Part shown: positions 12,290-44,752 of the stretch, piece after piece
Layout: every line of letters starts with the position of its first letter
How positions within the stretch are numbered: the stretch's first letter is position 1
Source of the DNA: a virus
Lineage: Duplodnaviria; Caudoviricetes
DNA: 64,000 bases
IMG/VR virus record: IMGVR_UViG_3300035208_006521
Span: 17,413-81,412 of that record
Reading direction: 5' to 3' (one strand)
Notes under the pieces: generated by a model
Told to the model about the DNA's origin: nothing
Databases searched by the model: none
The model's input: the letters and a program-made list of their open reading frames with translations, nothing else
Translations under genes and position numbers: made by a program

Positions 12290-12304
12290 AATTTTTTCCT
12301 CCTA

Positions 12305-21247: not shown

Positions 21248-22630
21248 CTAAAACCAATCAAGGTTTGATGGGGATATATTGATGATCCTTACCTGTTGTT
21301 CTCTTTTCTTTAATCCCAATGCTCCAAAGAGTAACATCAAGAAGGGATAAACTGCCGCGTTTGTCGGATATAAATCGAATTTCATCATCGGCAAGAATTG
21401 TTCCCATTCTATCGCATCATACATTGGATTCAGATTCAATGCATACACTGTTGAAGTACCCGGTAAGTATGCGTTAGTGTCGGAAACAACCTGCGGAGAA
21501 CCTGTTCTTTTCGTCTGGAAGCATTTTTTATGTCCAGTTGTTTCTCCTTTTTTGGCTCTGTAAATTACCCAACCTGTGCCTGCTGTTGAACCATCTGTGA
21601 TGGTTATATCAACTTGTTCTCCCACACCTACTGCAATTTCTGAATTTGCTGAAGGTATAGATTCCCCGAATTTGTTAACAGCACATACTATATAGCTGTA
21701 TGTTCCTTCATCACCTGATCCAAACTCGGAAGATGTTCCGGATACTGCAAGGCTTATTGTTGGTGCAGAAGGCCTGGAAGCTACTATTACAGAAGCTCTT
21801 GGTACTGCTTTTTCCTGGATGAAGATATCATCTACCAGTTTAGGCGTCCCGAATGGAGTTGGATATTCTGTGAATATTGCTCCTCCTAGAACTTCTCTTT
21901 TTGCTTCAAAACGGATTCTGTTTCTCAAAAGAGCCTGAACGTCCTTCATTACCATTAAGGAGCAATAAAGATCGGTTATTATACCGAAGTTTGCTCTGAT
22001 GATTCTCGCTGCTTCCGTCATGGCTTCTTCGAATTCTGTTGTGTTGGCTGTTTTGCCTCTGAGGTCAATAACATTGACAGTGCCCTGTGAAGTCGGAGCT
22101 GCTGTAATGAGTTTATCTAATCCATCTGGCTGTTCTACTATTACATCAGAATCGCCATTGAATAGGATTTTTTCGACCTGTTTTATAATCCAGAGTGTGC
22201 CGGCCTGTTTTTCGAGTGCAACCGCATCTTCGATCATATTTGCTATCGAAGCCTGCAAGGTAACTTTCCTCAGAGTCTGCAAATATTTCATCAAGACGAA
22301 TGATCTTTCTATCGTCTGATCTTTTTCTACAGAATCACCACCTTCTGGAACCCATGCACCATCCTCGTCACCAACTTCTGTTCTCCTTACCCACTGATGA
22401 GCAACTGATTTGACGGGCTGCTTTTTAAGTGCTTTAAAAAGCTTTGCTTCATCCTGGCTCCAGAGAACGTTGACGAGAGTTGTATCCAGGGATTCAGGCT
22501 GAAGTGCACGCCCTCCTGTGAAAGAAGCAGCATCAACACCTGTGCCTCCTTCTAAGGCTTTTAAAAGGGAATCCATCATTTCTGAATTACCCTGGTGAAA
22601 ACCTTCACTTAAGTCTTTTAAAAGGTCCAT
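21248..22630 (-). CDS. Major capsid protein (Twort/SPO1-like)
   Basis: 460 aa. Contains GGRALQPESLDTTL, FNGDS...QPDGL, PFLMLLFGAL. Predicted maturation site LLK24-A25. Confidence 0.92.
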   Translation of the reverse strand: MDLLKDLSEGFHQGNSEMMDSLLKALEGGTGVDAASFTGGRALQPESLDTTLVNVLWSQDEAKLFKALKKQPVKSVAHQWVRRTEVGDEDGAWVPEGGDSVEKDQTIERSFVLMKYLQTLRKVTLQASIANMIEDAVALEKQAGTLWIIKQVEKILFNGDSDVIVEQPDGLDKLITAAPTSQGTVNVIDLRGKTANTTEFEEAMTEAARIIRANFGIITDLYCSLMVMKDVQALLRNRIRFEAKREVLGGAIFTEYPTPFGTPKLVDDIFIQEKAVPRASVIVASRPSAPTISLAVSGTSSEFGSGDEGTYSYIVCAVNKFGESIPSANSEIAVGVGEQVDITITDGSTAGTGWVIYRAKKGETTGHKKCFQTKRTGSPQVVSDTNAYLPGTSTVYALNLNPMYDAIEWEQFLPMMKFDLYPTNAAVYPFLMLLFGALGLKKREQQVRIINISPSNLDWF

Positions 22631-22649
22631 TTATTTCCTCCTTTCCTTT

Positions 22650-23360
22650 TTACATTAAAGTCATTACATCATTCGGCAGCGGAATACCTTTTTGTATTCT
22701 ACTTTCGAATTTGATGGAATCTTGAATACTTATTTTCCCTTCATTTACCAATTTAGGTAATTTTGAAAGGGCTTCTGATTTGGTCAGAGATGCTCTCTCT
22801 TCTCCGCCTTCAATGGATTTTCTCATTATCTGAATTTTATCCCCTAAAAGGCTTTTCCTGGGTAGAACTGTACCCCCAATAGCTTCCATTCTTGTGCTGA
22901 TTGATTTTACCAGCTTAGCCTGGGCTACTTCCATACCTTCTTTTTTCCTTAAAGATTTTCTCAAATCTTTAATTTCTTCTGCCTGATATACCATTGCTTT
23001 TGTCAAATCAGTTATCTGATCATCAAGCCTTCTTACCAGACTTTTTAAGAAAGGTGTCACTTCCAGAACATCAGAAGAATCCGGGTCGGAATTCAGACTG
23101 TCTTCGATGGATTTGGAAAGGGCTTCATATTCAGGCTCCCCTGATTTTTGATACTCTTCCTCTTCTTCATCATCTTCATCCTCGTCAAATTCTTCATCAT
23201 CTTCTTCGTTTTCATCTTCGTCGAAGTCTTTTTTGACAACTTTCTTTTTTTTCTTGTCAGCTTTAGAGAGGTCTTCTAAAGCCACATCCAGAGCCTTTTC
23301 CAGCTCTTCACTAGTGGCTTCTTCTAACTCTTCTCCAGCCAATTTCTTTAGTTTGTCCAT
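22650..23360 (-). CDS. Capsid scaffolding protein
   Basis: 236 aa between protease and MCP, with an acidic tract and many L-x-K-[AS] sites. Confidence 0.7.
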   Translation of the reverse strand: MDKLKKLAGEELEEATSEELEKALDVALEDLSKADKKKKKVVKKDFDEDENEEDDEEFDEDEDDEEEEEYQKSGEPEYEALSKSIEDSLNSDPDSSDVLEVTPFLKSLVRRLDDQITDLTKAMVYQAEEIKDLRKSLRKKEGMEVAQAKLVKSISTRMEAIGGTVLPRKSLLGDKIQIMRKSIEGGEERASLTKSEALSKLPKLVNEGKISIQDSIKFESRIQKGIPLPNDVMTLM

Positions 23361-23380
23361 TTTCTCCTCCTATAGACAAA

Positions 23381-24151
23381 TTAGTTTTTAAAAAGAAACT
23401 TTTGAACCATTAAATTTTTTAGTGGTTTATACAAATGAGTTGCTCCTTGAAATTCAAGGTAATCCTGAAAATCATCTTCGCTTCTTATATCCCCGCTTTT
23501 AATTCTCATCAGAAGTTCATTTATTACGGGCTGGACTTCAACATTGTTTGCTCCCTGTAGGCTTTCAGGACTTAACGCTCTACCCCCTGTAAACATGGAA
23601 GAATCAACTCCGGAACCTAACATCAGAGCTTTAGTAAAAGCTCCAAAAGGGATAAGACTCACTTTACCCAAAGTTGATGCATTTGTCGGTTTATAAGTGA
23701 CTGCTGTTTCATCCCATATAACCTGGGTTATCCCAGATAGGGCTTTATTCAATGATACCCTTTTCTTTACATAACCACCAATTGAAGCTCCTAGGCGAGA
23801 TGATTGAGCTTTTAGTAATCTTACAACCGCATCTGCAAATTCTACTCCTTTGTAAAGTTTGCCTTTTACAAATGTCCTGTTTTCCTTGAAACCTACGTCC
23901 TGTGGTTCACCTATTATATACTTTGGTGACTTTTCCAATTTATGTAAATGGTCCCAAGAAATAACTCCACCCTTCAAATAATCTTCAGCCTGTTCCTGTA
24001 ATGCTTTCATGAATACTATTTCCCTGGATTTATCTCTTTCCTCGTTTGAGGCTTCCAGAAATACAGTGTAAGCATCGTTGGGGTCTGACTTAATGATGAT
24101 TTGTCCCATTGGAGAATAAAAAGGGTCAAAGTTTTCTAGATTTTCTCTCAT
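23381..24151 (-). CDS. Prohead protease
   Basis: 256 aa. Contains ASNEERDKSREIV, ISWDHLH, LGASIGG, as in HK97/Twort-type prohead proteases. Confidence 0.85.
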   Translation of the reverse strand: MRENLENFDPFYSPMGQIIIKSDPNDAYTVFLEASNEERDKSREIVFMKALQEQAEDYLKGGVISWDHLHKLEKSPKYIIGEPQDVGFKENRTFVKGKLYKGVEFADAVVRLLKAQSSRLGASIGGYVKKRVSLNKALSGITQVIWDETAVTYKPTNASTLGKVSLIPFGAFTKALMLGSGVDSSMFTGGRALSPESLQGANNVEVQPVINELLMRIKSGDIRSEDDFQDYLEFQGATHLYKPLKNLMVQKFLFKN

Positions 24152-24172
24152 TTGTTTTACCTGTATGTACCT

Positions 24173-24201
24173 ATAATATATTCATAAGGATAAAAAGTAA
24201 A
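24173..24201 (-). promoter_or_regulatory. sigma70-like promoter TTTACT-17-TATTAT upstream of the protease-scaffold-MCP operon
   Basis: Exact 17-nt spacing in an intergenic gap. Confidence 0.6.
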
Positions 24202-24229
24202 CAATTTTTTTCCTATAGTTCACGTAACT

Positions 24230-24433
24230 TTACGGCCTTAATACTTCTTTGACTTCCGAAGGCCTTAATGGAACACAACCAACGCTAAATTTGAGCTTAC
24301 CGGTTGAGTTGCTACACTCAACTCTAAATACCATTAGCAACATTATAATCAATATTACTATCCACTTAGAGTCCTTTAAGAAATTTAATCCTTTGCTTAT
24401 ATCTACTCTTATACTGTGATTTTTATTTGACAT
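24230..24433 (-). CDS. Small membrane protein
   Basis: 67 aa with one TM segment. Confidence 0.55.
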   Translation of the reverse strand: MSNKNHSIRVDISKGLNFLKDSKWIVILIIMLLMVFRVECSNSTGKLKFSVGCVPLRPSEVKEVLRP

Positions 24434-24453
24434 TATTTTCTCCGACTTTTATA

Positions 24454-26016
24454 TTACCACTTATTCCCGTCCGGGTCGTTTCCCTTCATCCATTTTAAAC
24501 TTATCCCGTTGGCTATATCTTTCATAGTTCCAAAATCACTTGCGTCGCATTCACCTGCTTCGACATCGGTTTTATAGCCCTGGGCCAATGCCTTCATTGT
24601 TCCTTCATCCGTCTTTTTGAAAAATACTGTGAATCCTTTTTTGTTTGTTACAAGCAAATTGTTTCCATCCACTTCTACATCTTTAAAGCCCGCTTTTTTG
24701 AATTTATCACTAATATCTGTAATGCTGGTTTTTTTATCTTTTTCAGCTTTATCTTTTTTGGCAGGCATTTTTTTCGACCTGAGTTGGCTATCAGGATATT
24801 GGGGGTTGGATATAAATTTGTCATCTTTCTTTTTGTCTTGTTGCATAAATTCACTTGCATCCATCAACATAGCATTTAACACCATATCTTTTTCTTCTTT
24901 TAAAAAGTTTTCTTCGCCGCCATAAACCATTTTCATATACTTCCCAAAACTTACATCATCCACATCCATTGAATCCGGGTCTGTAAAAATTTCTAATAAC
25001 TCTTTCCTTTTATCCTCTGTACTCATGTTGTCAGATTTTCCTTCTTCTCCCGCATCTGAATAGAATTCTTTATATTCTTTTTCTACCTTTTTATCCGACC
25101 ATCCTCTTATTTTTGTCTCTTCTTCGGCCGCCGTCAATTCTTTTATGGCTTCTTTTTCATATTCTTTTAGATTTTTCGGTCTCCAGCCTGCTTTTAAGGC
25201 ATTCTGGATGCTTGATCTTTCTTCTTTACTTGCTTTTCCTGCTCCCAAAAATGAAGCCAATTCAATTCCGGACATACCTGATCCTTTCTTACTTAAACCA
25301 CTTCCATCAGCCCTGCCCTTACCAGGACCTGCACCTCTGCCATAAGGACCCGTTCCATCCCGTTTTTCTACGCCGAATTTTTTACTTTCTGTTTCTTTAC
25401 TACCGGATGTTCTTCCTTTTTTCTCCTTGTATACATATTTATAATTGCCCTTGGTACCTTCCCTGCGGAGATATTTTGCTTTTAGCATTTCTCCTTCTGA
25501 CATATTTTTTGTTCTGATTTTTAAAGCTTTTTTTAAGCTACTCAATTTATTCTCCCAATTTATCCCTGTGCTTATACTAGTCAGTTCTATCAATTTTAGA
25601 ACTTTTGCGACACGTCCTCTCCACGCATCCTTTCCATAAGTTTCATCTAACCTATTTTTTAGATATCTCTTCCACTTATCCTCAAAATGATTATCCACAA
25701 GATTTTTATAACCATGTCTTACATATGCTGGCAGACTTTTGAATTCTTCGGAAGCCATAACACCCTGGGCTACTTTTCTCATGGCCATTACTTTGCTCCC
25801 AAAATCTTCTTCATATTGACGGTCACTATCACCATTCCCCTTATTTCTAGTCCCAACCCTGTTGGCGGTATTTTTTTGTTCTTTGATATCCTCTTTTGAT
25901 AAATGTTTTTCTCCCGATCCCTTATAAGTATACTTATAATGACCAGGTCCACCTTCTCTCTTGATATATTTAGCTTTTAATAATCTCTCCTCTAAAGCCT
26001 CTTTTAAGTTATTCAT
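24454..26016 (-). CDS. Putative internal head (cargo) protein with two leader/module-B copies
   Basis: 520 aa. Contains LLKA-KYIKREGGPGHYKYTY and an internal MLKA-KYLRREGTKGNYKYVY. Confidence 0.7.
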   Translation of the reverse strand: MNNLKEALEERLLKAKYIKREGGPGHYKYTYKGSGEKHLSKEDIKEQKNTANRVGTRNKGNGDSDRQYEEDFGSKVMAMRKVAQGVMASEEFKSLPAYVRHGYKNLVDNHFEDKWKRYLKNRLDETYGKDAWRGRVAKVLKLIELTSISTGINWENKLSSLKKALKIRTKNMSEGEMLKAKYLRREGTKGNYKYVYKEKKGRTSGSKETESKKFGVEKRDGTGPYGRGAGPGKGRADGSGLSKKGSGMSGIELASFLGAGKASKEERSSIQNALKAGWRPKNLKEYEKEAIKELTAAEEETKIRGWSDKKVEKEYKEFYSDAGEEGKSDNMSTEDKRKELLEIFTDPDSMDVDDVSFGKYMKMVYGGEENFLKEEKDMVLNAMLMDASEFMQQDKKKDDKFISNPQYPDSQLRSKKMPAKKDKAEKDKKTSITDISDKFKKAGFKDVEVDGNNLLVTNKKGFTVFFKKTDEGTMKALAQGYKTDVEAGECDASDFGTMKDIANGISLKWMKGNDPDGNKW

Positions 26017-26354
26017 TCTGTTTCTCCTAAATGGTTTAATTTGGCGGCTTCAACAGATTCGGAAGCCATATTGATAGTATTCTCTAACAATGATCTATCA
26101 TGTAACAACTTCATATAACTGAATTTTTTATCCTCATATTCTTCATCCATTTCTTTGCCTGAAGTATAAGGCTCTAATTCTCTTCCCTTTTTTTCTATCC
26201 TACCTTTTAATATTTTCAAATGCTTCTGGGCAGCTTCCATTATTGCTTCTTGTTCTTTTATTATCCCCCTTATATAAACTTTTCCTTTTGCATAAGCATT
26301 ATTGAGTTTGTTTATATCTTTCTCTGTTATTCTTTTTGTTGATTGTAAGTTCAT
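26013..26354 (-). CDS. Hypothetical helical protein
   Basis: 113 aa, translationally coupled on both sides. Confidence 0.65.
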   Translation of the reverse strand: MNLQSTKRITEKDINKLNNAYAKGKVYIRGIIKEQEAIMEAAQKHLKILKGRIEKKGRELEPYTSGKEMDEEYEDKKFSYMKLLHDRSLLENTINMASESVEAAKLNHLGETE

Positions 26355-28111
26355 TTGTTTTCTTCCTTTGCAAATTTTTTATAAAATCTTATTTCACTAC
26401 CCATTTTGGAATAATCATACCATTCTCCTGTATGATAATCCATTGCTTTTTTATCCCGCTTTATTTTAATTTTCGTATTTGCCAAGGGCCCGTGTTCAAA
26501 TTCAATTATATCCCCCACTTTCGGATCAGAGTCGTGGAGTTTGAATATAGGTGTTTCTTTTCCGGGTTTTGCTTCCTCCGCATAAACCTGTACCCAGTCA
26601 TCATTATAATCCCCAGTCTGTTGGGTATATATATTTGTCAGCTTGTCTAACCCTTTTTGTTTTATATAGCTTCTTACCCATGCTTCTGCTGATTTTTCAG
26701 ACGTACTCTTGAATGTAAAAGCCATACTACCTTCTCCGGCGTCTATATAATCGGGTATATTGCTTCTTGGTACTCTATCACTATCGCCTCTTTTTTGATA
26801 GTCATCATTAGCATACTGGGAATAATCCGTCTTTTTAGATTCTTTCTTCGATTCTGTTTTAACTACTAGCTTAGGCTGTTCGATTGGTGCTGGGGTTAAA
26901 TTATTTATATCCCTGTTTTCTGAATTGAATTCACCCAACTCTATAGAACCATAACCTCCACCGCCCATTACTTTAGAAGGTGGGGTTAATTCCTTAACAC
27001 TAAACCCACTTCCTCTTAAATCATTAACGATTGAATTAAATCTATCGGTTGATATACCGTGAAATCCTATCCTTTTGGGGTTATATTTATCTATTTCATA
27101 ACTATTGCCGGAAGAATGTGTCCAGCCTCTTATAGCGGTCCCCGTGACTTTAGTCACTTCCAGTCCATATTTATGAAATATATCCTTTGCGAGTTTCAGA
27201 TTCAAATCTTCGTACTTCATTTTTCTCTCGAATTTTTCAAGCTCTCTCCTGGCATTTTCAAAAACTTTTAATCCTTGTTTTTTTCTTCTTGCTGGAATTT
27301 CCATATAAAATTTCCGGGCACTTTCTATTCTATCATTAAGCATTTTCCTTTGTCTTTCCCTTTCATCTTCGCCTGTCTTTTTTATCACTAGTTTTTTTTC
27401 TTTTGGTTTTTGTATGTCGCCTGCAGCCGGTACTCCAATCTGGGGTGTTGCTTGATAATTACTTATATATTCCCTTGCCTTTACATACTGGGTTCCTTCA
27501 GGTCCTAGCATTATCTCTTTTGCTTTTTCTACTCCCATTTCTTTCACATATTCATGGAAATTTTCTTTCGCTTTTTTGACTGCTTCTATTTCCCTCTGAC
27601 TGAGTGACTTTTTTTCAGCTAATTCATCGATTTTACTTTGGTAATATTCAACTCTTTCCCATGCATGTTTTTTATTATCTTCTGTTTCCCCGGTATCATT
27701 TGCTATGTTCCTGAAATGTTCTTTCTTTTCTTCCCATGGTTTTATCTGTTCATCGAAAGAAAGTTCTTTTGACGCTAAATTTGCTTCAGTCCATCCTGCA
27801 AGCCATTCTTTCATCATCCCTGCGGAGCTACTTCCTACTTTTTTACCTTTTATCTGTTCCATCAAATCATAATCTCTGGCAGGAATTGCCATTTTTCCTT
27901 CCTTAAATGCTTTTCTACCCATTTCCCTGGCTTGCTGGGTTGATATATTCTTTGTTGTACCCTGTTCCTTCTTGTCACTACCGGTTTTCGCTTTTTGTCC
28001 TGCTTTACCGACATATTTCCATCCAGTGGCAGTTTTCTGATATTTTCTACCACTATATTCTTTTATTGTTCCGTTGGGTACTGCTTTTGCTTTTAATAAT
28101 ATGAGTCTCAT
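26351..28111 (-). CDS. Putative internal head (cargo) multidomain protein
   Basis: 586 aa. Leader MRLILLKA-KAVPNGTIKEYSGRKYQKTATGW. Confidence 0.7.
   Translation of the reverse strand: MRLILLKAKAVPNGTIKEYSGRKYQKTATGWKYVGKAGQKAKTGSDKKEQGTTKNISTQQAREMGRKAFKEGKMAIPARDYDLMEQIKGKKVGSSSAGMMKEWLAGWTEANLASKELSFDEQIKPWEEKKEHFRNIANDTGETEDNKKHAWERVEYYQSKIDELAEKKSLSQREIEAVKKAKENFHEYVKEMGVEKAKEIMLGPEGTQYVKAREYISNYQATPQIGVPAAGDIQKPKEKKLVIKKTGEDERERQRKMLNDRIESARKFYMEIPARRKKQGLKVFENARRELEKFERKMKYEDLNLKLAKDIFHKYGLEVTKVTGTAIRGWTHSSGNSYEIDKYNPKRIGFHGISTDRFNSIVNDLRGSGFSVKELTPPSKVMGGGGYGSIELGEFNSENRDINNLTPAPIEQPKLVVKTESKKESKKTDYSQYANDDYQKRGDSDRVPRSNIPDYIDAGEGSMAFTFKSTSEKSAEAWVRSYIKQKGLDKLTNIYTQQTGDYNDDWVQVYAEEAKPGKETPIFKLHDSDPKVGDIIEFEHGPLANTKIKIKRDKKAMDYHTGEWYDYSKMGSEIRFYKKFAKEENK
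28080..28103. repeat. 24-bp direct repeat copy 1 (ACTGCTTTTGCTTTTAATAATATG), encodes ILLKAKAV
   Basis: Identical to 30433-30456. Confidence 0.9.
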
Positions 28112-28172
28112 GTTTTCCTCACATAAATTTTCTTATCCTGCTACTACATCCAATTCTTCTCAAAAAATTCTT

Positions 28173-28475
28173 TCAAATTTTTTGCTTCACCTTTTCCGGG
28201 TTTTTACTCTTTGTTGCAGCCTTCTTTTTTCTATCTGACAATATCTTATTTGCTTTATATTCATTCTGGAACATCTTCGCTTCCTGTTTTACTTTTGCTG
28301 AGGGTTTATAGGTCTTTGTTTTGCTTTTTGCTTTGCTTTTTCTTCCGCTAGGAACAAACACCCAACCATTCTTTGTTTTTTTGTACTTCTTACCGCTGTA
28401 AGTTTTCACCGTACCAATGGCAAGTTTTTCGGCTTTCATAAGCCTGTCAAGTAAAGCTTCTTTCAAATTGTTCAT
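28173..28475 (-). CDS. Small basic putative internal head protein
   Basis: 100 aa. Leader MNNLKEALLDRLMKA-EKLAIGTVKTYSGKKYKKTKNGW. Confidence 0.7.
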   Translation of the reverse strand: MNNLKEALLDRLMKAEKLAIGTVKTYSGKKYKKTKNGWVFVPSGRKSKAKSKTKTYKPSAKVKQEAKMFQNEYKANKILSDRKKKAATKSKNPEKVKQKI

Positions 28476-28744
28476 TTTATTTCTCCTTTTTTTATTACAA
28501 GTTTTGTTTCTTTTAATAATCTCCTAGGATTATCTTTTACTACTTCTATCAACTTATTACTTCCGTTATCAAACTTACACTCTACCACTGCTTCTATATC
28601 GCCCCCTGAAGCAAATCCTGCAAAGTATTTACAATCTCTGCAATTGTTATCATAGAATTCTACACCCCATTCAACCAGCTCATTATTCTTTCTACAATAT
28701 ATCCTACCCATAGAATCCGGTATCATTTGAAATGTTGTTTTCAT
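28472..28744 (-). CDS. Hypothetical protein with CxxC
   Basis: 90 aa, with an upstream RBS and a promoter-like element. Confidence 0.6.
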   Translation of the reverse strand: MKTTFQMIPDSMGRIYCRKNNELVEWGVEFYDNNCRDCKYFAGFASGGDIEAVVECKFDNGSNKLIEVVKDNPRRLLKETKLVIKKGEIK

Positions 28745-28756
28745 TTTCTTTCCCCT

Positions 28757-28785
28757 ATATTATATCCCTTTTGTTAAATTGTAAA
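28757..28785 (-). promoter_or_regulatory. Putative promoter GTTTACA ... TATAAT/TAATAT
   Basis: Intergenic. Spacer is 15 nt to TATAAT or 17 nt to TAATAT. Confidence 0.4.
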
Positions 28786-28790
28786 CCTTT

Positions 28791-30467
28791 TTATTTATTC
28801 AACCATTCATTATCTATTTCTTGAACTTTATCCCTGGTTCTTTCTATATCTATCCACAACATCGGCAATACTGCTTTTGGATTTTTGACACAAAATTCAT
28901 CATTAAGTAATCTGCCTTGTCCTTTTTTTGCATATACTGTATCGTGCCCATTTGGAAGGTTATGATCGGAATATTTAACATTGCCCATGGCTGCTTTGCA
29001 TACAAACATTACTCCCCTGTCATCACTTCTGCCATAATCCCCTGCATATTGGATCGACTTAGAGCTTACATCCGTCAAATATATACCATCTCCCAACATT
29101 CTACCTGTTCTGGCTTTTCTTAATTCAAAACCCCCTTTTGCTATCTTTGATGCATTCTCGAAAGTTGTAGCATGGTATCCTATCTTCACATTACCTTTTT
29201 CTTTTTCTATTGACTTCCATTTTTCATAATAACCGGCTTCTTCTATCTTGTATATACCTTTTATTCTAAAACCAAATCCTCCATGCTGTGTCTTGTCAAA
29301 ACTATTTTTTAGATATTCGAGTACTCTCTGACATCTACCTCTATCAAGGCTTCTCAATGCTATTTTCTGGGAGTATTCTCTACCTTCCCTTGAAAGTTTC
29401 TTTCTTATTGCTTTCTGTGAAGCTTCAGACATACCCCCAATTCTTTTATCCATTATCATTTTTTCCATAACCGAATTTGTATATGAAGGTGATCTATTAG
29501 CCATAGTCATAATATCATAAACTTCTTTTGAGGTTAGTAATGGAGTTTGTTGTTTTTTTTCTTTGTTTGCTTTACTATAAAGTGTTGAATTTAATTTAAA
29601 AGTACTATACAGAGCGGCCAATTTGTTGGCCGCATCCTTATCCATATTTTTGCCTTTTTCTCTATTCTTCCTCCATTTCTTCGTAAAATTTCTAAATTCC
29701 CTTTCCGAGTTTAACGCCTCATTTCCCATTTCATTGGCCTTTCTTTGCCATTCTGCTTCTTCTGGAGTTGGGTTTTCTCTTATTAGTTTATGTTCATCTT
29801 TCGCTTTTTCCCTTTTTTCTGTCCATTCTTTATAAAGAATGTCATCACCTTTCATTCTTGCTTCATTCTGTTCTGCGGCCAATGTTTCTATTCTCTCATA
29901 AAATTCATCACCCCTTCGACTTGCATTTTTTTCATATTCACTTTTCTTTTCATAGACTTCTTTTAAATTTTCTGCACGCCCTGTAAAACCTCTTTTAAAA
30001 TCTTCATCTAAACCATCAAAAATATCAATTCTATCTTTATAATTTTTCAACCAACTATCAACAGCTCCCCATATAACCATAAAACTACTCATTTTTTTGA
30101 GATTGAATCTCTCAAAATCCAAAGAACATTCCCTAACCGCTCTTTTTATATATTTGGGGGCTTCCTGAGAAGGTTCAAATATATGCAATTGATCTGATAC
30201 ATATTCCTCGGCTTTTCTATCGAGACATTTTATACCCGTGGTTTCCATTATTTCTTTTGCTTTGGGCGAGAGTTCTTTTGTTGTCTTATCCATTGCTGGC
30301 TTAGTTGCAACGTTTGTTTGTATTGCTGTTATATCTTTGGTCACTTGCTTATCACCTTTGCCATGAAACTTCCAGCCATTGGCTGTCTTGATATAATCTC
30401 TGCCACTATATGTCTTTATTGTTCCAATTGGCACTGCTTTTGCTTTTAATAATATGGCCAATTTCAT
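28791..30467 (-). CDS. Cargo-leader protein with C-terminal PARP-like ADP-ribosyltransferase (H-Y-E)
   Basis: 558 aa. Contains GYHAT, GRMLGDGIYLTDVSSKSIQY, GVMFVCKAAMG, LLNDEFCV. Confidence 0.85.
   Translation of the reverse strand: MKLAILLKAKAVPIGTIKTYSGRDYIKTANGWKFHGKGDKQVTKDITAIQTNVATKPAMDKTTKELSPKAKEIMETTGIKCLDRKAEEYVSDQLHIFEPSQEAPKYIKRAVRECSLDFERFNLKKMSSFMVIWGAVDSWLKNYKDRIDIFDGLDEDFKRGFTGRAENLKEVYEKKSEYEKNASRRGDEFYERIETLAAEQNEARMKGDDILYKEWTEKREKAKDEHKLIRENPTPEEAEWQRKANEMGNEALNSEREFRNFTKKWRKNREKGKNMDKDAANKLAALYSTFKLNSTLYSKANKEKKQQTPLLTSKEVYDIMTMANRSPSYTNSVMEKMIMDKRIGGMSEASQKAIRKKLSREGREYSQKIALRSLDRGRCQRVLEYLKNSFDKTQHGGFGFRIKGIYKIEEAGYYEKWKSIEKEKGNVKIGYHATTFENASKIAKGGFELRKARTGRMLGDGIYLTDVSSKSIQYAGDYGRSDDRGVMFVCKAAMGNVKYSDHNLPNGHDTVYAKKGQGRLLNDEFCVKNPKAVLPMLWIDIERTRDKVQEIDNEWLNK
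30433..30456. repeat. 24-bp direct repeat copy 2
   Basis: Identical to 28080-28103. Confidence 0.9.
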
Positions 30468-30468
30468 T

Positions 30469-31146
30469 CTATAACTCCTTCAAATATTTTTCCGGGTAAT
30501 GATCTAGCGGATTGCCTACTATCTTCAACCATGGGAGCAATAATAATTCCCAACCAAAAGTTGCTCCTAGTCTTAATGTCTTGCTTATATGCATAAAACC
30601 CATCCATAATGTTGGGACTTTTGTTACCATGTCTTCTTTATATACAAATCTTCTGGAAATTATTCTTCTTCTCCTAAAATCTCTTACAAATGATCTATTA
30701 CCCACTCTTGGAGAACCAAAAGTGATACAGATCACTTCCTTGCCCCCTGCAGTTATCATGGAATAGAAATAAGCATGAAGAACCGCAAGGGCTGCCCCTA
30801 AACTATGGCCCGTAAAGATAACACTTTCTTTACCCCTTTTGATTATTTTTTCGAATACTTCTATTTTTGAAACTTGATACTGTCTAAAAAAACCTTCATG
30901 AACTTTTATCCTTTTTTCGGTTGTTCTTATCTTCTTGAAATTCAAATTATCATACCAATCAAGCTTGCCATGAGAGCCCTGGAAGACAACTACTGTATGT
31001 TTTCCGTAATCTCCTATCATGTATTCTGTGTGTCCTATTTTACAAACTTCAACATTTTCCATAACTTCTTTGACTTTTCCATGATGGCCGTTATAAGAAT
31101 TTACGCATGCCTGGCACATATTCCTTATTGTCATTGCTGTTAACAT
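30469..31146 (-). CDS. Class 3 lipase (alpha/beta hydrolase)
   Basis: 225 aa. Contains VVFQGS..DW, VHEGF, TGHSLG, TFGSPRVGN, DMVTKVP and C-terminal DHY. Confidence 0.9.
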   Translation of the reverse strand: MLTAMTIRNMCQACVNSYNGHHGKVKEVMENVEVCKIGHTEYMIGDYGKHTVVVFQGSHGKLDWYDNLNFKKIRTTEKRIKVHEGFFRQYQVSKIEVFEKIIKRGKESVIFTGHSLGAALAVLHAYFYSMITAGGKEVICITFGSPRVGNRSFVRDFRRRRIISRRFVYKEDMVTKVPTLWMGFMHISKTLRLGATFGWELLLLPWLKIVGNPLDHYPEKYLKEL

Positions 31147-31220
31147 AAGCTTTTTCTCCTTTTAAACTATAGTTTTTTACAATTTTACGTTGCACGTACC
31201 AATGCACGCCAGCTGTGTTT

Positions 31221-32180
31221 CTACATCTTTAATATCTTTATTAGCTTTGAAATTGTTGTTTTAGCATCAGAATGTTTTACACCAACACCCCCTGCATGCT
31301 CCCATTTTTTGAGATTTTTATCCATATCATCAATCAGTATATTCCCATTGCCTGCATATTTCTCTTTATTGTGATCTATTATAATTTCTATTCCTTTACC
31401 TATGTTTTTATGTATCCAGAATTTTTTATCTTCCTTATAATCTTTTACTTGGGCTGTTGATGTTAATATCTTCACTATATACCCTTTGTTCTTTAATTCT
31501 GCTAAATAACCCCATAACTTCAATGCATCTTTTTTTCTGGGCATACTACGCCACCAATGAGGTTTCGATTTTATTCTTGCAAAGATATCATCAGAGTTTT
31601 TATCATCATCAGGATGTATCCCAAAAGATGATATATAATGAGCATCAAAATCAGATAATACCCCATCACAATCACAATATATTTTCGGTTTAATTATATC
31701 CGATTTTATAAATAATCTCATACCCGACTTTTTTAACCTCTTCTCAAAATCTACACCTTTTACAACTACATCATGGATATATTTACCATCTTTTATAACT
31801 ATCTCTTCTTCCATATTTTCAAATTCATTATTTCTGTCTAGAGTATCTTCAAAGGATATACCTTCTTTGCCTATAGTTGCTGAAATAACCACTCCATCTT
31901 CTCCGGCAAAATCATCAGCTATTGAAAAATTAGTAGTCCAGCTTATACCTGGATTATTAACATCTATATCTGTATCTTTTGAACCTCTATATATTTTAAG
32001 TGGAAATTTTAAGTTATCCACAAAATCATTACCTGTATTTTTAAAACTTTCTGTTTCGTTGGAAGTTTTTGTTTTGGCATTATTTATTCTTCTCCACTTC
32101 CCTTCAGAAACTTTTTTATACTTGCCATGAATAGTTCCTACTGGTACTTTTCTTGCTTTTATCATGACTACTAGTTTCAT
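31221..32180 (-). CDS. Cargo-leader + ART-like domain + HAD 5'(3')-deoxyribonucleotidase fusion
   Basis: 319 aa. Contains IYRG...GISWT...EEEIVI, then YCDCDGVLSDF...ILT...ILIDD. Confidence 0.75.
   Translation of the reverse strand: MKLVVMIKARKVPVGTIHGKYKKVSEGKWRRINNAKTKTSNETESFKNTGNDFVDNLKFPLKIYRGSKDTDIDVNNPGISWTTNFSIADDFAGEDGVVISATIGKEGISFEDTLDRNNEFENMEEEIVIKDGKYIHDVVVKGVDFEKRLKKSGMRLFIKSDIIKPKIYCDCDGVLSDFDAHYISSFGIHPDDDKNSDDIFARIKSKPHWWRSMPRKKDALKLWGYLAELKNKGYIVKILTSTAQVKDYKEDKKFWIHKNIGKGIEIIIDHNKEKYAGNGNILIDDMDKNLKKWEHAGGVGVKHSDAKTTISKLIKILKM
31682..31707. repeat. 26-bp direct repeat copy 1 (TTTTCGGTTTAATTATATCCGATTTT), encodes KSDIIKPK
   Basis: Identical to 32870-32895. Confidence 0.92.
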
Positions 32181-32181
32181 A

Positions 32182-32382
32182 TTATGCTACCTTTAACTTT
32201 CTTCCATTTAATTTGCCTTCTTTCTTTGCTAATTTTTCCATTGCTATCAGCCAATCATAATAATCTGGAATCTCATCCAAATGGTCTTTAGCAATCAATT
32301 CAGCTTCAGCATCATCGCTTGTGTGTTCTCTTTCAATCTTTATACCAAGCTTTAATTGTCTGGGGTCGTATTTCTTTTCCAT
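32182..32382 (-). CDS. DUF5661-like small protein
   Basis: Contains QLKLGIKIEREHT...IAKDHLDEIPDYY. RBS before ATG 32382. Confidence 0.7.
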   Translation of the reverse strand: MEKKYDPRQLKLGIKIEREHTSDDAEAELIAKDHLDEIPDYYDWLIAMEKLAKKEGKLNGRKLKVA

Positions 32383-32401
32383 TTTTATTCTCCTATATAA
32401 A

Positions 32402-32918
32402 TTAAGCAAGAAATAATTCACTACCTTCACTTCTTGCCATTGGGTGCTTATTTGCTTCTGTTGTCTCTTCTATCTCTTTCATTTTGTCTTCTATTTCTTT
32501 CGAACTTCTTTTCTTAGTTTTATTTCCAAGCCACTTTTCTCTTTTTTCTTCAAGTTCTTCTTCTACTTTTGATGTATCTTTATCAGGCCTGCTATCCAAT
32601 CCATCTTTTAACCTTTTGCTCCTTTCAATTGGTGGCTGGTATGTACCTTTTATTATTCTTTCCAGACCTATGAACTCTCTGGGTAATTCACTAAACATAA
32701 ATTCTTCTTGTGTCTTTATTAAATCACCCATTCTCATTGCAATGGCTTTTTGTATTGCTACACCTCTACCTTTCTTTTCGCTTTCTATTGAGTTCAATAT
32801 CCTTGCCAATCCAGTTTCATCATGGGCTGCTATATCATCTATACTGCCAAGGATATTCATTTCTTTTTCTTTTCGGTTTAATTATATCCGATTTTCTTAA
32901 TCTAATTATTAACTTCAT
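32402..32918 (-). pseudogene. Leader MKLIIRLRKSDIIKPK joined out of frame to a 152-aa ORF (32402-32860) that resembles the helicase C-terminus
   Basis: ATG 32918 overlaps the upstream stop (TAATG). The leader frame stops at 32835. The +1 frame reads RKEKEMNILG...HDETGLARILNSIE. Confidence 0.6.
32870..32895. repeat. 26-bp direct repeat copy 2
   Basis: Identical to 31682-31707. Confidence 0.92.
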
Positions 32919-33367
32919 TATGCTGTCATTCTCTTATCTGGGTAATGTCTTTCCATCGTGCTTACGAATCTACTATAAACTGCCCTTGCCATTTGTTTGT
33001 CCGGCATGTTCAGATTTACTAACTTTTTAACATAATTATATGCGTCATCATGTGAAGCACCTGCCACTTTTTTCTTTCTGAAAACTTTAAACATTAAATC
33101 TTCATGGGCTGAATACTCTCTATCTACTGTTTTGTTTTCCCCTGTCTTACCTGTTACTCCTATTTCAGCCCCCTTTCTTTCAGGCTTTTCATCAGCCGAG
33201 CCTTTCTTGCTTCCAACGGGCTCTTTGTATATGTATTTGTTACCCTCCTTTCTTATATATTTAGCTTTTAGAAGACTTTCCCTTAAATCTTTTCTCATTG
33301 CTTTCTCAAGACTTTCAGTCCAGTTGATTCTTTCACATAATGCTTTTTCCAACTTATTCATATCCAA
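32918..33367 (-). CDS. Putative internal head protein
   Basis: 149 aa. Contains LEKA, LEKA, then LLKA-KYIRKEGNKYIYKE. Confidence 0.7.
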   Translation of the reverse strand: MDMNKLEKALCERINWTESLEKAMRKDLRESLLKAKYIRKEGNKYIYKEPVGSKKGSADEKPERKGAEIGVTGKTGENKTVDREYSAHEDLMFKVFRKKKVAGASHDDAYNYVKKLVNLNMPDKQMARAVYSRFVSTMERHYPDKRMTA

Positions 33368-33391
33368 TCTCCTTTTTTCATTTTTTGCTTC

Positions 33392-33691
33392 CTATTTTCT
33401 GACAACTAACTTCTTATATTCTTTAACGCCTTTTTTGTAAAGCTCTTTTTCTTCCGGGGCTATTTCTAATAAAAGTCCTTGTAATTCCCCAACATGCACT
33501 ACTTCTTCATCCGAAATAGACTTAAGTGTTTTCTTTGCCTTATCATTACTTATTGATTCAGCCAATTGCATGTATAGTTGTATAGCTTCATACTCCGCGG
33601 CTATTGCAAATCTTATTGCTCTTATTGTCTCTTCTTTTGTGAGCTTTCTATCTGCTTTCATACCTGAGAATGGGTTTTCAAATTTTGGCAT
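33392..33691 (-). CDS. Ferritin-like (rubrerythrin / encapsulin-cargo-type) protein
   Basis: 99 aa. Contains IRAIRFAIAAEYEAIQLY...ISDEEVVHVGE (ExxAxxxY / EExxH di-iron pattern). Confidence 0.8.
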   Translation of the reverse strand: MPKFENPFSGMKADRKLTKEETIRAIRFAIAAEYEAIQLYMQLAESISNDKAKKTLKSISDEEVVHVGELQGLLLEIAPEEKELYKKGVKEYKKLVVRK

Positions 33692-33703
33692 ATTATTTCT
33701 CCT

Positions 33704-36700
33704 TTATATCATTACTCTTTCTTTTAAATCTTCCGATCTTCCATCTATTTCTCTCATGTGTCTTTCCATACAATCAGGGCACATTCTACCAACCACACTC
33801 TGTGCATCATAATTTTCAAATCTCTCTGGAATATCATTCACCCATTTATCATCCTCCCTATATTTTTTGCATACTCTACATTGATATAATACTTCTCTTC
33901 CACTTTCAAGTTCTTTCTTCTTAATGTGTGGAGTTGTATCCAGATTATCTTCCAATTCCATTGCATTCTTTTTTGTTACATCTTTTGCTTTTTGAAATGG
34001 TGATTCCTTATATATTGATCTATCTTCCCAAATGGCTTTTTCCAGTGATTGTAATAATGATTCGGCTGCGGATATTTCATCAACTTTTCTACCCAATCTT
34101 TCCAGCGCTATTGTTAGTGCCTTTTTCATTGCTTTACCTGGTGCCCCTTTTTCCTTTTCTATTGAATTTAATATCCCGAGCAAACCTGTTTCATCATGCC
34201 CTTCTATTTCTCTTGGGTTACCTAGTATATCCATTTCCCTTTCCTTTCTATCTAGGATATCCCTTTTACTCATATCAAAGGGAGAATTACTTTCCAAAAC
34301 ATAAGTTGCTACATCCTTATTTTGACCCTTTCTAAATATTCTTTTATTCCTTTGGTCAAATGATGCAAAGGTGGGTGGAATATCATAATGAAATGTTACT
34401 GTACCCCCAAACTGAAGATTATGCCCAGCTTCTAGAGACTTGGTTCCTATTATGAATCTTACTTTTGATTCTGGGTTATTAAATTCAGCTTTTGCCGAGT
34501 CAGCTTCTTTTTTCGCTGTGTCGCCATTTATGGCTACAACACTACCTTTTCCATATTTGGCTTCCAGGGTTGTTTTAATCGTATCCATTGCTTTTCTACC
34601 CTGTAAATGTATGACCGCTTTTTCTCCTTTATGATCATTTTCCATTATATCAAGTATTTTCTGAGCTTTGGAATTATTTTGTGGGTCCCCATTATGGAGT
34701 ATTTGATAATTTCTCGCGTCTCTTCTACTTGCTGCCCCTATTTTTTCTCCTTCATTTGCCCTTTCCTGGGCATATTTGGCTTCCGATTCTTTATATGCTT
34801 TTCTTTGTGCTTTTGTTAAATCTACTTTTATCCTCTTTATGTTATTTTTCACCGGCAATTGAGTCCTCTGTGAATATACCCATTGACCTATTTCTCTCCT
34901 AAACGCGTCATTTGCACCTTCCTGCACTGCTGTTGTACCTTGATTTAATCCTTCATATCTTCTTTCAAAATCTTTCATACTACCGAGTGTATGATTTGGG
35001 TCCACAAAATCTATTTTCTTCCACAATTCCCTTTTTGAATTTTTTATGTTTGTTCCTGTCATTGCTATCTTATAAGGGATTATTTTACCCAATGATTGTA
35101 ATCCTTTCATTCTACCCGAGGATTCATCGCTTGCATAATTTGGATTTGTTAACTCATGAGCTTCATCTACTACCATCATATCAAAGCCAGCTTTTTCCAA
35201 TAGTTCTTTATCTGTTCTTAATTGGTCATGACCTATGATTATTATTCCATCTTTTTTATAATTTTGCTCTCTTTGTTTTGGTCCCTTATCATTTAAAGTC
35301 ACAAGTTTTTGTCTATCCGGTGTTAAAAACTTCTCCCTTTCCTGAAAGAATTGGCTTCTTAATTTTGCAGGTGTTACTACTAAACATTTTTTAGCCCCTT
35401 TATTATTCATTGCTTCCAGACAGGCTGCATATCCTAGTGGAGTTTTACCTATACCTGCTTCAAAATCTAATACTGCTTTACCCGTTTCTTTAAAGAATCT
35501 CAAACCAGCTTCCTGGGAAGCATCTAGCTTTATTTTACTTTGCATACCCTCTGGTTTATATCCATCATTCATTTTATGGGCTTTTATCTTTTCTATTATA
35601 TTTTCTTTCTCCCTCGCCTTGACATTTGTATTAAAGAATTTACCTAGACTATCTTTTGGTATTTCCATTACTATTCTTTTATCTTTAGTTTTCAAAGAAT
35701 AATCATCCCTACCAAGTCCCATTATTCTCGCTTTCTTTCTAGCTTCAAATAAATCATGACCCATATCTACCTGGACGGAATCTACCGGTCCTTCTTCCAA
35801 TGCATTTATTAAGTGAGCTGTTGCTCTTAAACTACCTACTGCTGAACCTAAATTCTTTTGGCCAGCTACGAGTTGTCTCAATGCATACCCATTAGCCGAA
35901 GCTTTAGAAAGTATTGCTTCTACGTCATCACTATCTTCGGCTAATTTTCTTATCTCATCCGCATTTGCAAATCTTTCCTCGGATTCTTTTAATGCTTTAT
36001 CAACTACCTTCATATTATTTTCTTTTGCAAATCTGTGAAGGGCTTCTTTCACTTCCTCTGTTCTACCATCAGCATGTATTTTAGCTGCCACTATCCTGGA
36101 ACAAGATTCTATTCCCATCGTTTGAATAACATCTTGATTAAATATTCCTTTTACCTTGAATATATCACCACCTACTCCATTTAGTGTTGCTAAACCACCT
36201 TCATCTATATGCTTTTGGGCTGCTAATCCTTGTGCATTCAACTTCTCATACAATTGCACGTTCTTTTGTGTTTCAACGTGTTGCTTTACTTCTTTAACTA
36301 TATCATCATCAATGCTACTTGAATCTTCCGCAAATGTTGTACCTATTTTAATCTCTGGTTCTTCTCCAATTCTACCCCTGGTAATATCTTTTAACTTTTG
36401 ACGAAATTCTCTCCTTGCTTTTAATATTTCTTTTGCCTTTTCCACGTTCAAAAGGTCCTGCATATTTTGTTTCTTATCTGGTGGTATTTCATCTCCAAAA
36501 TAATCTGTTGCTAGTGCGTTTAATGCCCTTGATTCTAATTGCTTTATCTTTTTTTCTTCCATTCTTACCCTGGCGGCTTCTTCTTCTTTTTTATATTCTT
36601 CGGGTTTTTCTTCCATCAACTTGGCTATTTTTTCTTCACCTACTTTATTCTTTTTGGCCATTCTTTTCTTCGCAACTTCACTTATCTCTTCCAGGTCTTT

Positions 36701-37780
36701 GGTTGTTAATATCGTTTTGTATTCCTCGCCCATTATCGTTTTCACTTTTTCTTCATAGGAGGCTCTTTCTCCTTTCTTGGCTTCTATCTCTTCCTTCTTC
36801 AGCTTGGTTTGTTCTTTTCTTTCTTCTGGGGTTATGTCCTTTAGCTTGGCTTCTTTCTTCTCCTTGAGTTGCTTTCTATACTCATCTTCTGGTAACAATT
36901 TATCGATCTTGAAGTGGTTTAATTTACCGCCTGCACCTCCTACTACCACATAACCTCCTTCTTCTACCCCTTGCACCAATACGTGTTGTCCCCTTACTGT
37001 CACCCATCTCAATCCCTTTCCTTTGAGGTCTTCTTTTTTATAATGCTCTTTGTCTGACTTCCTCATCTCCATATCCGGGCCGGATATCTTACCCTTCTTG
37101 CTCTTTACCTTGCTCTTGAAGTCATCTATCTTGAACTCTTCCATACTACCAAAGAATTTTTCTGGGTTGTCATAATGATCACAATATGCTTTCTTCGCTT
37201 CTTTATCATTATTAAATCCCAACATCACTTTATCTTCATCGTATTTCCCTGTTAGTGGATTATTCTGATGTATTACATATACCCTTTTACTTTCTTCATC
37301 TTCTCCTATGAAGCAATCTACGCAATCTCCGTCAGCCCCTTCCGTTAGTCTTATGTACCCATATGGTATTTTCATCTTTGTTTTCCATTCGTTACCATCT
37401 GGGTCTTTTCCTCTTCTTATACTGCCAGGTTTATTTTCTATACTTATATCCATGCCCTGGAATTTTCTTTTACCTTGTAATTTGTAGTTTGCCTTTTCCA
37501 TATTCTCAAAATGATTTTTTAACAGGTAATAATTCTCTATGGAAAATTCTCGCACATCCAAGTCCTCAACACCAGGGCACAAAAAAGAGAGCTCAACGGC
37601 TTTTTTCATAAGACCTAAATCTACCGTTGAGCTTTTATTCATACCGCTATATATACTGTTTACTAACTTCCAGAAGCTTTCATCTTCTTCCGTATAATTT
37701 GGATACTGCCTATGTACTATCTTTTTGGCTTTATCCCACTTCTTTTCGTCTTGCTTATCTTTTACTAATCCTTTTGGCAT
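33704..37780 (-). CDS. Polyvalent protein: InPase-like domain, coiled coil, SNF2/SF2 helicase, C-terminal Zn finger
   Basis: 1358 aa. Contains ISIEN..GSIRRG...YGYI..TEGADGD.VDCFIG...DEDKVMLGF; FEAGIGKT; VVDEAH; MTGT; LEAGHNLQ; QRNKRIFRKGQ; CxxC...CxxC. Confidence 0.85.
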   Translation of the reverse strand: MPKGLVKDKQDEKKWDKAKKIVHRQYPNYTEEDESFWKLVNSIYSGMNKSSTVDLGLMKKAVELSFLCPGVEDLDVREFSIENYYLLKNHFENMEKANYKLQGKRKFQGMDISIENKPGSIRRGKDPDGNEWKTKMKIPYGYIRLTEGADGDCVDCFIGEDEESKRVYVIHQNNPLTGKYDEDKVMLGFNNDKEAKKAYCDHYDNPEKFFGSMEEFKIDDFKSKVKSKKGKISGPDMEMRKSDKEHYKKEDLKGKGLRWVTVRGQHVLVQGVEEGGYVVVGGAGGKLNHFKIDKLLPEDEYRKQLKEKKEAKLKDITPEERKEQTKLKKEEIEAKKGERASYEEKVKTIMGEEYKTILTTKDLEEISEVAKKRMAKKNKVGEEKIAKLMEEKPEEYKKEEEAARVRMEEKKIKQLESRALNALATDYFGDEIPPDKKQNMQDLLNVEKAKEILKARREFRQKLKDITRGRIGEEPEIKIGTTFAEDSSSIDDDIVKEVKQHVETQKNVQLYEKLNAQGLAAQKHIDEGGLATLNGVGGDIFKVKGIFNQDVIQTMGIESCSRIVAAKIHADGRTEEVKEALHRFAKENNMKVVDKALKESEERFANADEIRKLAEDSDDVEAILSKASANGYALRQLVAGQKNLGSAVGSLRATAHLINALEEGPVDSVQVDMGHDLFEARKKARIMGLGRDDYSLKTKDKRIVMEIPKDSLGKFFNTNVKAREKENIIEKIKAHKMNDGYKPEGMQSKIKLDASQEAGLRFFKETGKAVLDFEAGIGKTPLGYAACLEAMNNKGAKKCLVVTPAKLRSQFFQEREKFLTPDRQKLVTLNDKGPKQREQNYKKDGIIIIGHDQLRTDKELLEKAGFDMMVVDEAHELTNPNYASDESSGRMKGLQSLGKIIPYKIAMTGTNIKNSKRELWKKIDFVDPNHTLGSMKDFERRYEGLNQGTTAVQEGANDAFRREIGQWVYSQRTQLPVKNNIKRIKVDLTKAQRKAYKESEAKYAQERANEGEKIGAASRRDARNYQILHNGDPQNNSKAQKILDIMENDHKGEKAVIHLQGRKAMDTIKTTLEAKYGKGSVVAINGDTAKKEADSAKAEFNNPESKVRFIIGTKSLEAGHNLQFGGTVTFHYDIPPTFASFDQRNKRIFRKGQNKDVATYVLESNSPFDMSKRDILDRKEREMDILGNPREIEGHDETGLLGILNSIEKEKGAPGKAMKKALTIALERLGRKVDEISAAESLLQSLEKAIWEDRSIYKESPFQKAKDVTKKNAMELEDNLDTTPHIKKKELESGREVLYQCRVCKKYREDDKWVNDIPERFENYDAQSVVGRMCPDCMERHMREIDGRSEDLKERVMI

Positions 37781-44545: not shown

Positions 44546-44752
44546 TTATATAAATGATTTTAGGAATTCTTCCTTTTTTACTTCTTCCTTTTTTACTTCT
44601 TCCTTTTTATCTTTCGATCTAATAACTATTTTAACCTCCTTGGTATTATTTTTTAAATAATGTATCATTGCTCTTAGATTCCTATTAGTGTATATGTGGG
44701 AAATATTATTACTGATAAATAATTCATACCATTTGTTCATATTTATCCTCAA
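44546..44752 (-). CDS. Hypothetical protein
   Basis: 68 aa ORF downstream of a conserved motif. Confidence 0.55.
   Translation of the reverse strand: MRINMNKWYELFISNNISHIYTNRNLRAMIHYLKNNTKEVKIVIRSKDKKEEVKKEEVKKEEFLKSFI

Follow-up and report, generated by a model that had tools for sequence, protein, structure and literature searches.

Exact 26-bp direct repeats in a phage effector gene row, possibly the scar of a short-homology recombination at the start of a predicted nucleotidase gene

In the genome of an uncultured phage, IMGVR_UViG_3300035208_006521 (Duplodnaviria; Caudoviricetes), two identical copies of a 26-bp sequence, here designated R1 and R2, stand as direct repeats in a row of accessory effector genes located between the portal and the prohead protease gene; R2 lies in a short orphan open reading frame (ORF), R1 in the gene of a 319-aa protein in which an ART-like module is fused to a predicted NT5C-type 5′(3′)-deoxyribonucleotidase. 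The stretch of DNA analysed, referred to as the window, comprises 64,000 nucleotides and corresponds to bases 17413-81412 of the 81,412-bp virus record, which carries direct terminal repeats (DTR). Both copies are read in the same codon phase, and deletion of one repeat unit restores an intact nucleotidase gene. We favour the view, with a probability of about one half, that a single duplicative short-homology recombination within this gene row left the two repeats as its scar; the direction of the event, in this case an insertion, and its mechanism are what we infer from the evidence laid out below.

The 26-mer (TTTTCGGTTTAATTATATCCGATTTT) is present twice on the plus strand of the window (see Table 1 for the coordinates of all features) with 0 mismatches between the copies and a spacing of 1188 bp, and these two are its only copies in the entire genome; a third one was not found in the window even at ≤3 mismatches. 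When all exact repeats of at least 15 nt were compared, the pair turned out to be the longest dispersed exact repeat of the genome, equalled or surpassed in length by nothing except the 108-bp terminal repeat and two tandem arrays. R1 and R2 both begin at codon position 3 and are both translated as KSDIIKPK, which agrees in position, identity and reading with what a preliminary description of this DNA had reported. The AT-richness of the genome (34% GC) raises random similarity, but 100 dinucleotide-preserving shuffles yielded 0 matches at ≤3 mismatches. The other trivial source of such identity, an assembly artefact, had been named in the preliminary description as a possible refutation; against it speaks that the 26-bp repeat is shorter than a 31-mer assembly word. 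The stretch is represented in part in six public runs, which come from five studies of landfill, groundwater, and sediment; four of the runs were compared with it at 80% likeness. Logan contigs of a landfill run (X2; 30514-31951 and 32425-32968) and of a groundwater run (X3; 31397-31925 and 32382-32970) match the window with 0 mismatches and 0 gaps, and in both of these metagenomes, neither of which is the probable source of the record, each repeat copy is bridged together with its own flanks; the repeat is therefore not an artefact of assembly, and both chance and artefact are refuted as explanations of the pair.

Deletion in silico of positions 31708-32895, that is, of one 1188-bp unit, leaves an open reading frame for a 169-aa protein of the NT5C type which starts with MKLIIRLRKSDIIKPKIYCD, and the earlier claim that loss of the unit rebuilds an in-frame leader-nucleotidase gene thus proved correct. 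The restored gene would start at the ATG that overlaps the stop codon of the 149-aa gene upstream (TAATG), an overlap which resembles a real gene start. In stand-alone homologues of the nucleotidase, the first strand of the fold is preceded by 1-7 residues or by a longer extension, mostly of 14-16; the restored gene has 16 there, and the version beginning with M154 of the 319-aa protein has 13. The restored extension fits the homologues by length and position, not by sequence. In an AlphaFold2 (AF2) model of the 319-aa protein, K159-K166, encoded by R1, joins a short, moderately confident strand (RLFI) to β1 (KIYC) of the HAD fold; the product of the repeat is, in this model, a non-core stretch that immediately precedes the first HAD strand and lies outside the confident core of the fold.

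By profile, motif and predicted fold, residues 154-319 are assigned to the NT5C-type deoxyribonucleotidases of the HAD superfamily. The domain matches phrog_2643 (4.1e-28 over residues 164-315) and has 3158 homologues, 804 of them at E 1e-10 or better, while its match to Pfam PF06941 (21.8 bits) stays below the cut-off of 24.8. In an alignment of 58 sequences D170, D172, G173, V174, D284, and D285 are invariant or nearly so, which corresponds to HAD motif I, DxDx[TV], and to a C-terminal DD. The AF2 model has a predicted local distance difference test (pLDDT) score of ~60 up to residue 160 and of ≥90 for residues 161-319, and the top PDB matches in Foldseek are cytosolic and mitochondrial deoxyribonucleotidases (cdN/mdN; E 2.5e-7). 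As a separate observation, many stand-alone metagenomic NT5C homologues (P0139, P0031, P0113, P0010, P0092, P0104, P0043) begin with an extension of 14-16 residues (MKSFKHFLAE- or MKTINTFLQE-, for instance) that resembles the capsid targeting sequence (CTS) of T4, MKTYQEFIAE (PMC8442874), a hint that packaging into the head may be frequent among phage nucleotidases of this family.

The other half of the 319-aa protein is less well defined. Its leader, residues 1-45, is common to two neighbouring genes, residues 1-17 matching the N-terminus of a protein with a PARP catalytic domain. Residues 46-140 share 62% identity with a stand-alone 103-aa protein (P0004, from a 1052-bp contig), the sole homologue of this core, and in it the ART-like motifs YRG (R65), SWTT (S80), and EEE (124-126) are conserved. 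A feature search with Atlas gave a weak pointer (0.90) from the core to DUF4765, a domain with an ART-like fold (PMC7883292). For the same core there was no Pfam match even at E 10 and no PDB sequence match, the AF2 model was unusable (pLDDT 30), and tblastn retrieved only one hypothetical phage protein (E 0.02). The name “ART module” given in the preliminary description finds no backing by profile or fold, being founded on the spacing R...S...ExE and the weak Atlas hint, and residues 46-143 are here called ART-like by motif only. No other fusion of an ART-like with an NT5C domain was present among the best 150 of the 3158 nucleotidase homologues, where the proteins matching in two stretches are tandem nucleotidases.

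Between the repeats lies a block of 1162 bp whose GC content (0.30-0.34) is the same as that of the surroundings, and the idea of a block of foreign composition was rejected. Its first ORF, of 152 aa, is a paralogue of the C-terminal tail of the phage's own helicase, a 1358-aa protein (BLASTP E 1e-14, 38% over 111 aa; DNA 72% over 100 nt), which bears out its earlier labelling as helicase-tail-like; no other homologue of it was found. The alignment starts with LNRKEKEM versus LDRKEREM, seven codons upstream of the ATG of the 152-aa ORF and no more than 12 nt from the block's left junction, and a TAA inside R2 closes the frame of the homology. In an anchored alignment there is a faint sign of the homology reaching into the repeat (P 0.03 versus random genome segments), and the overlap might represent microhomology at an illegitimate joint. 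The second gene had been labelled DUF5661, and its score, well above the Pfam cut-off, agrees with that label. Both the leader and the helicase tail have paralogues in the same genome, which suggests that the donor of the block was this lineage or a close relative. Outside the 26 bp the flanks of R1 and R2 are unrelated: on the 5′ side (in the coding sense) their similarity does not exceed that of random genome segments (P 0.35), and on the 3′ side there is none. If a codon indel is allowed, the repeat can be lengthened to ~41 nt (ATNAGATTA), but this longer match is not significant. To judge from its sequence, the 26-bp repeat resembles either a target duplicated as a discrete unit or a crossover core common to both sites.

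A scenario that joins these observations is the following. An ancestral gene would have started at the ATG overlapping the stop of the 149-aa gene, and its product would have been an NT5C-type deoxyribonucleotidase of 169 aa, the first 16 of which form an N-terminal extension. Between its codons 16 and 17, a 1162-bp block of resident-type modules would have been inserted, with duplication of 26 bp of the target; the block would have consisted of a copy of the helicase tail, the DUF5661 gene, and a leader-tagged ART-like gene lacking a stop codon. Profile searches and repeat analysis found no transposase or integrase domains and no terminal inverted repeats in the block, which points to template switching, short-homology recombination, or homologous integration of a circle carrying the 26 bp as the possible route. 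Insertion of a transposon or insertion sequence (IS) with target-site duplication was rejected, there being neither a transposase nor inverted pairs at the ends of the block, and the duplication measuring 26 bp. On the left, the event would have left an orphan ORF of 27 codons that enters the tail paralogue in the wrong frame; on the right, it would have fused the ART-like module in frame to the complete nucleotidase. The break may have been tolerated because the repeat encodes a non-core segment ahead of the first HAD strand, at what appears to be a leader-payload joint. The sharp identity over 26 bp between unrelated flanks fits one insertion with target duplication and is not predicted for decayed paralogues; a single event would account for the sharp edges on either side, for the orphan start, and for junctions that are out of frame on the left and in frame on the right. 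On this reading, the block arrangement would by now be fixed in every sample in which the phage occurs.

Further evidence comes from the other samples and from the search for relatives. A junction joining 31707 to 32896, as deletion of the unit would create, is contained in no contig of the four runs, contigs being known to drop rare variants; the sole joint listed (29187 to 31049, side 20, in one contig) probably belongs to another organism, and the partial cover in runs X4 and X5 is uninformative. Those parts of the 6 kb from 29000 to 35000 which are covered are letter-identical in the landfill run of 2018 and the groundwater run of 2022, each belonging to a separate study, which points either to a source shared very recently or to a population that changes very slowly. 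By blastn against phages no relative was found, and the 26-mer is absent elsewhere in IMG/VR and in the JGI contigs. Searches for related loci with the 319-aa protein, the C-terminus of the helicase, P0004, and the capsid protein gave no relative, nor did an alignment of the ART-like core in metagenome contigs or an alignment of the helicase tail reveal a related locus; the corresponding search with the 149-aa protein returned only a motif match in an unrelated phage (see below). Word-based protein searches with the tail alignment and with the 149-aa protein returned nothing except self matches, and with the nucleotidase domain one weak match of 183 aa (P0001, E 7e-5). In the collections searched the phage is without sequenced kin.

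Several observations weigh against an insertion. The copy of the helicase tail has only 72% DNA identity to its paralogue, which makes the block not a recent copy of resident DNA. The preliminary description had proposed a recent cassette insertion at the leader; the structure of an insertion fits the data best, while “recent” is derived solely from the identity of 26/26 positions, and the divergence of the tail shows the block's components to be old, however young the joint may be. A genome with an empty site was not found in the phages, IMG/VR, and JGI contigs searched, which is why the direction of the event has to be deduced. A target duplication of 26 bp is long and no enzyme can be named for it. 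The orphan leader, compared with the N-termini of the nucleotidase homologues, shows no significant similarity (rank 0.18 among the N-termini of the genome), and its candidature as a nucleotidase-type N-terminus by sequence was dropped. Finally, the five codons MRLFI ahead of R1 begin with a Met and resemble a gene start or mini-leader of their own, as would fit the 5′ end of a second nucleotidase gene.

This last point leads to a rival account, considerably less probable than a single insertion, in which an empty allele never existed. Two nucleotidase starts, in one lineage or in two recombining relatives, would both have borne the 26 bp; an illegitimate join of codon 16 to a helicase-tail-like gene would have destroyed one copy, and the surviving one would stand behind the ART-like gene. 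M154-RLFI-KS does resemble the M[KR]L..K[AS] leaders of the neighbouring genes and is a plausible normal gene start, and the possible microhomology at the left junction would suit such a join. Paralogues which kept 26 of 26 positions, though, should also match in the adjacent 15-23 nt, where R1 and R2 do not, and a second sharp boundary is needed at the 5′ edge of the repeat, which means more events. A further possibility is that the 26 bp are a working recombination site, the 1188-bp unit being excised as a circle, lost, re-inserted, or amplified appreciably often, and the population switching between the nucleotidase alone and the ART-like::nucleotidase fusion with two extra genes. Direct repeats in the same phase would make loss of the unit viable, the second-longest dispersed repeat of the genome (24 bp) is likewise found in leaders, those of two cargo genes that are unrelated to each other, and the mini-circles of T4-type phages formed at promoter-early stem-loop (PeSL) cassettes are a precedent (PMC2839356). 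Given the missing deletion junction, the filled junctions in two independent samples, and the restriction of the 26-mer to two copies in this genome, we regard an active site of this kind as improbable; the reversible cargo switching offered in the preliminary description finds no support in these data.

It is still less likely that the identity of the copies was preserved for a function in DNA or RNA. The orphan leader and the 152-aa ORF differ by +1 in frame and two AAA-AGA pairs follow the repeat, which would allow a frameshift fusing the two; AGA, in turn, is the main Arg codon (736/1087) and ordinary genes contain AAA-AGA in frame 46 times, so there is no special site, and a programmed +1 frameshift was dismissed. 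The repeat contains TATAAT, and at R1 (31693-31721) ATGAGA-17-TATAAT, with 10/12 matches, is the best promoter-like site in 3.6 kb, against which stand the lack of a −35 element at R2 and the number of promoter-like sites, 15 found versus 14 expected. Neither copy folds better than shuffles and no terminator was found in the repeat; a promoter or RNA structure was accordingly discarded as well. The scar of a single short-homology recombination remains the reading we prefer for R1 and R2.

Table 1. Position of the repeats, the block between them, and adjacent features, numbered by window position
Feature	Coordinates	Strand	Remarks
NT5C-type 5′(3′)-deoxyribonucleotidase domain (predicted)	31221..31721	-	residues 154-319 of the 319-aa protein; own Met (M154); DCDGV motif
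Repeat copy 1 (R1)	31682..31707	-	encodes K159-S-D-I-I-K-P-K166 in the 319-aa protein (ORF 31221-32180), immediately ahead of the IYCDCDGV strand
Inter-repeat block, 1162 bp	31708..32869	-	helicase-tail paralogue, DUF5661 gene, leader-tagged ART-like module, 5 codons MRLFI
N-terminal half of 319-aa protein	31722..32180	-	leader (residues 1-45), ART-like core (46-143), 10-aa linker
DUF5661 gene, 66 aa	32182..32382	-	ATG at 32382; good ribosome-binding site; PF18905, 4.8e-12, 46.5 bits (cut-off 27)
152-aa ORF	32402..32860	-	paralogous to the C-terminal tail of the resident helicase; reading frame shifted by +1 against the orphan ORF
Orphan ORF, 27 codons	32835..32918	-	MKLIIRLRKSDIIKPK, then 11 out-of-frame codons; ATG overlaps TAA of the 149-aa gene (TAATG)
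Repeat copy 2 (R2)	32870..32895	-	K9-K16 of the 27-codon ORF; codon phase as in R1
149-aa gene (upstream)	32918..33367	-	stop codon overlapped by the start of the orphan ORF; no homologues found elsewhere
Helicase tail segment paralogous to the 152-aa ORF	33929..34255	-	within the 1358-aa InPase-SNF2 protein

All genes of the region are encoded on the minus strand. Following transcription, one meets first the genes for the terminase (49000-50862) and the portal (47387-48928) and then that for the 1358-aa protein (33704-37780), which contains the Pfam domains InPase, SNF2, and Helicase_C; next come a rubrerythrin-like gene of 99 aa and the 149-aa gene, the orphan ORF, the 152-aa ORF, the DUF5661 gene, and the 319-aa gene, then genes for a class-3 lipase and for a 558-aa protein with a PARP catalytic domain, and further genes; those for the head-maturation protease, the scaffold, and the major capsid protein (21248-24151) close the row. 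Flanked by portal, protease, scaffold, and capsid genes, the effector row sits inside the head-assembly module. For polyvalent proteins bearing InPase in such positions, packaging and injection have been proposed (PMC5512222). Of the 149-aa protein, the motif K-Y-[IL]-R-K-E-G-N-K-Y-I-Y-K-E (window 33240-33290) recurs in an 80-aa ORF (5941-6183) inside the structural gene block of an unrelated 97-kb phage (L003); looser forms, Y.K...G.W.Y, come after the leaders of the 520-, 586-, 558-, 319-, and 100-aa proteins, and in the AF2 model a segment of this type (residues 21-31) forms a β-hairpin.

Three genes of the row, adjoining the head-assembly genes and with unrelated payloads, have in common a leader of the form M[KR]L..KA.VP.GT. 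The 586-aa protein and the PARP protein align over residues 1-42 only, with 67% identity, and are otherwise unrelated; their leaders hold the 24-bp repeat mentioned above (encoding ILLKAKAV; 28080-28103 and 30433-30456), which is embedded in 101 nt of 77% identity (28003-28103 and 30356-30456), and a third, weaker copy of this leader heads the 319-aa gene (32131-32161). Unlike the 26-bp repeat, the 24-bp repeat has the look of diverging paralogues. A motif of two hydrophobic residues followed by K-[AS] is present within the first 45 residues in eight adjacent genes, from the capsid gene to the 149-aa gene (21248-33367), five times as LLKA, and in only 5 of the 96 other predicted proteins; it occurs at residue 22 of the major capsid protein and at residue 19 of the protease (IIK-SD), and R2 follows upon LRK-S, R1 upon FIK-S. 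This motif is a candidate for a prohead-protease site or for a leader, and the products of the effector row are probably packaged into the head and may be cleaved. One could go further and suppose that the joint K|SDIIKPK has two roles, as a prohead-protease cut site which frees the ART-like part from the nucleotidase inside the capsid and as a portable seam at which 1188-bp circles are excised and re-inserted. We consider this doubtful; if true, the population would possess a changeable set of injected enzymes without a dedicated recombinase.

The genome contains other repeats as well. Upstream of the window, at genome bases 11580-13895, a cluster of 17-23-bp exact repeats precedes several small genes on the plus strand, some of them including a ribosome-binding site and ATG (AGGAGAAAAGATTATGAAAAA); the same region has a 23-bp inverted pair (12392/13859) and a 24-bp palindrome (12191), and the repeats look like repeated regulatory cassettes. 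Two tandem arrays of 15-bp units were found in the window, one (TCTTCGTCCTCCAGG, ~3.7 copies, 60234-60289) inside a 150-aa ORF (60182-60634), the other (TTCTTCCTTTTTTAC, ~2.8 copies, 44567-44608) outside any ORF of at least 100 aa.

The arrangement is of a known kind, the modular rearrangement of accessory or cargo genes of phages by way of short repeats, and as it stands it is an ordinary, if well-preserved, recombination scar. It would provide a clean example, dated by its structure, of how an effector array of a phage is rebuilt, in a lineage from landfill and groundwater that has no sequenced relatives; one event at a short repeat would have decapitated a gene and fused two enzymes into a small polyvalent protein, in a structure able to revert in frame. 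In T4-type phages the creation and removal of segments by short-homology recombination is documented (PMC9391042, PMC2839356). The PeSL cassettes and mini-circles of these phages (Arbiol et al. 2010, PMC2839356) are similar in that short conserved sequences flank accessory genes, that recombination between them deletes or inserts the genes, possibly with a circular intermediate, and that the cassette contains no dedicated recombinase. PeSLs, however, are intergenic, combine a promoter and a terminator in ~100 bp, and number ~50 copies per genome, whereas the repeat described here is 26 bp long, coding, and present in two copies; it forms no stem-loop, promoter-like sites are not enriched, and it splits a gene while PeSLs lie between genes. 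Another parallel is the microhomology-mediated amplification and deletion observed in T4 (Srikant et al. 2022, PMC9391042), where short direct repeats make and remove segments of kilobases; a repeat-unit-repeat structure such as ours is a natural substrate for this process. The repeats in T4 measured 6-10 bp and the events took place under laboratory selection, whereas here one fixed structure is present and no copy-number variants were seen.

Together with the PeSL cassettes, the polymorphic internal-protein loci of T-even phages, which have a CTS (PMC3012670, citing Repoila et al. 1994), are the nearest parallel: unrelated, probably injected proteins are encoded beside the head genes with short N-terminal leaders in common, and the seam appears to lie at the joint of leader and payload. 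The phage type is a different one, and the leader here is M[KR]L..LLKA as opposed to MKTYQEFIAE. If protease cleavage and recombination both turned out to take place at this joint, T-even-style modular swapping of cargo would extend to an unrelated group of phages. The row also recalls the polyvalent proteins (Iyer et al. 2017, PMC5512222), the 1358-aa neighbour having InPase and SNF2 domains and the effectors, PARP, lipase, ART-like, and nucleotidase, being strung or fused near virion genes; in the passages of that paper retrieved by a term search, “nucleotidase” occurs once, in the section on ParB, and NT5C is not named. Unlike those polyvalent proteins, the effectors described here are mostly separate genes with leaders of their own, not parts of one giant protein, and it is the ART-like::NT5C fusion which, on a small scale, has the polyvalent architecture.

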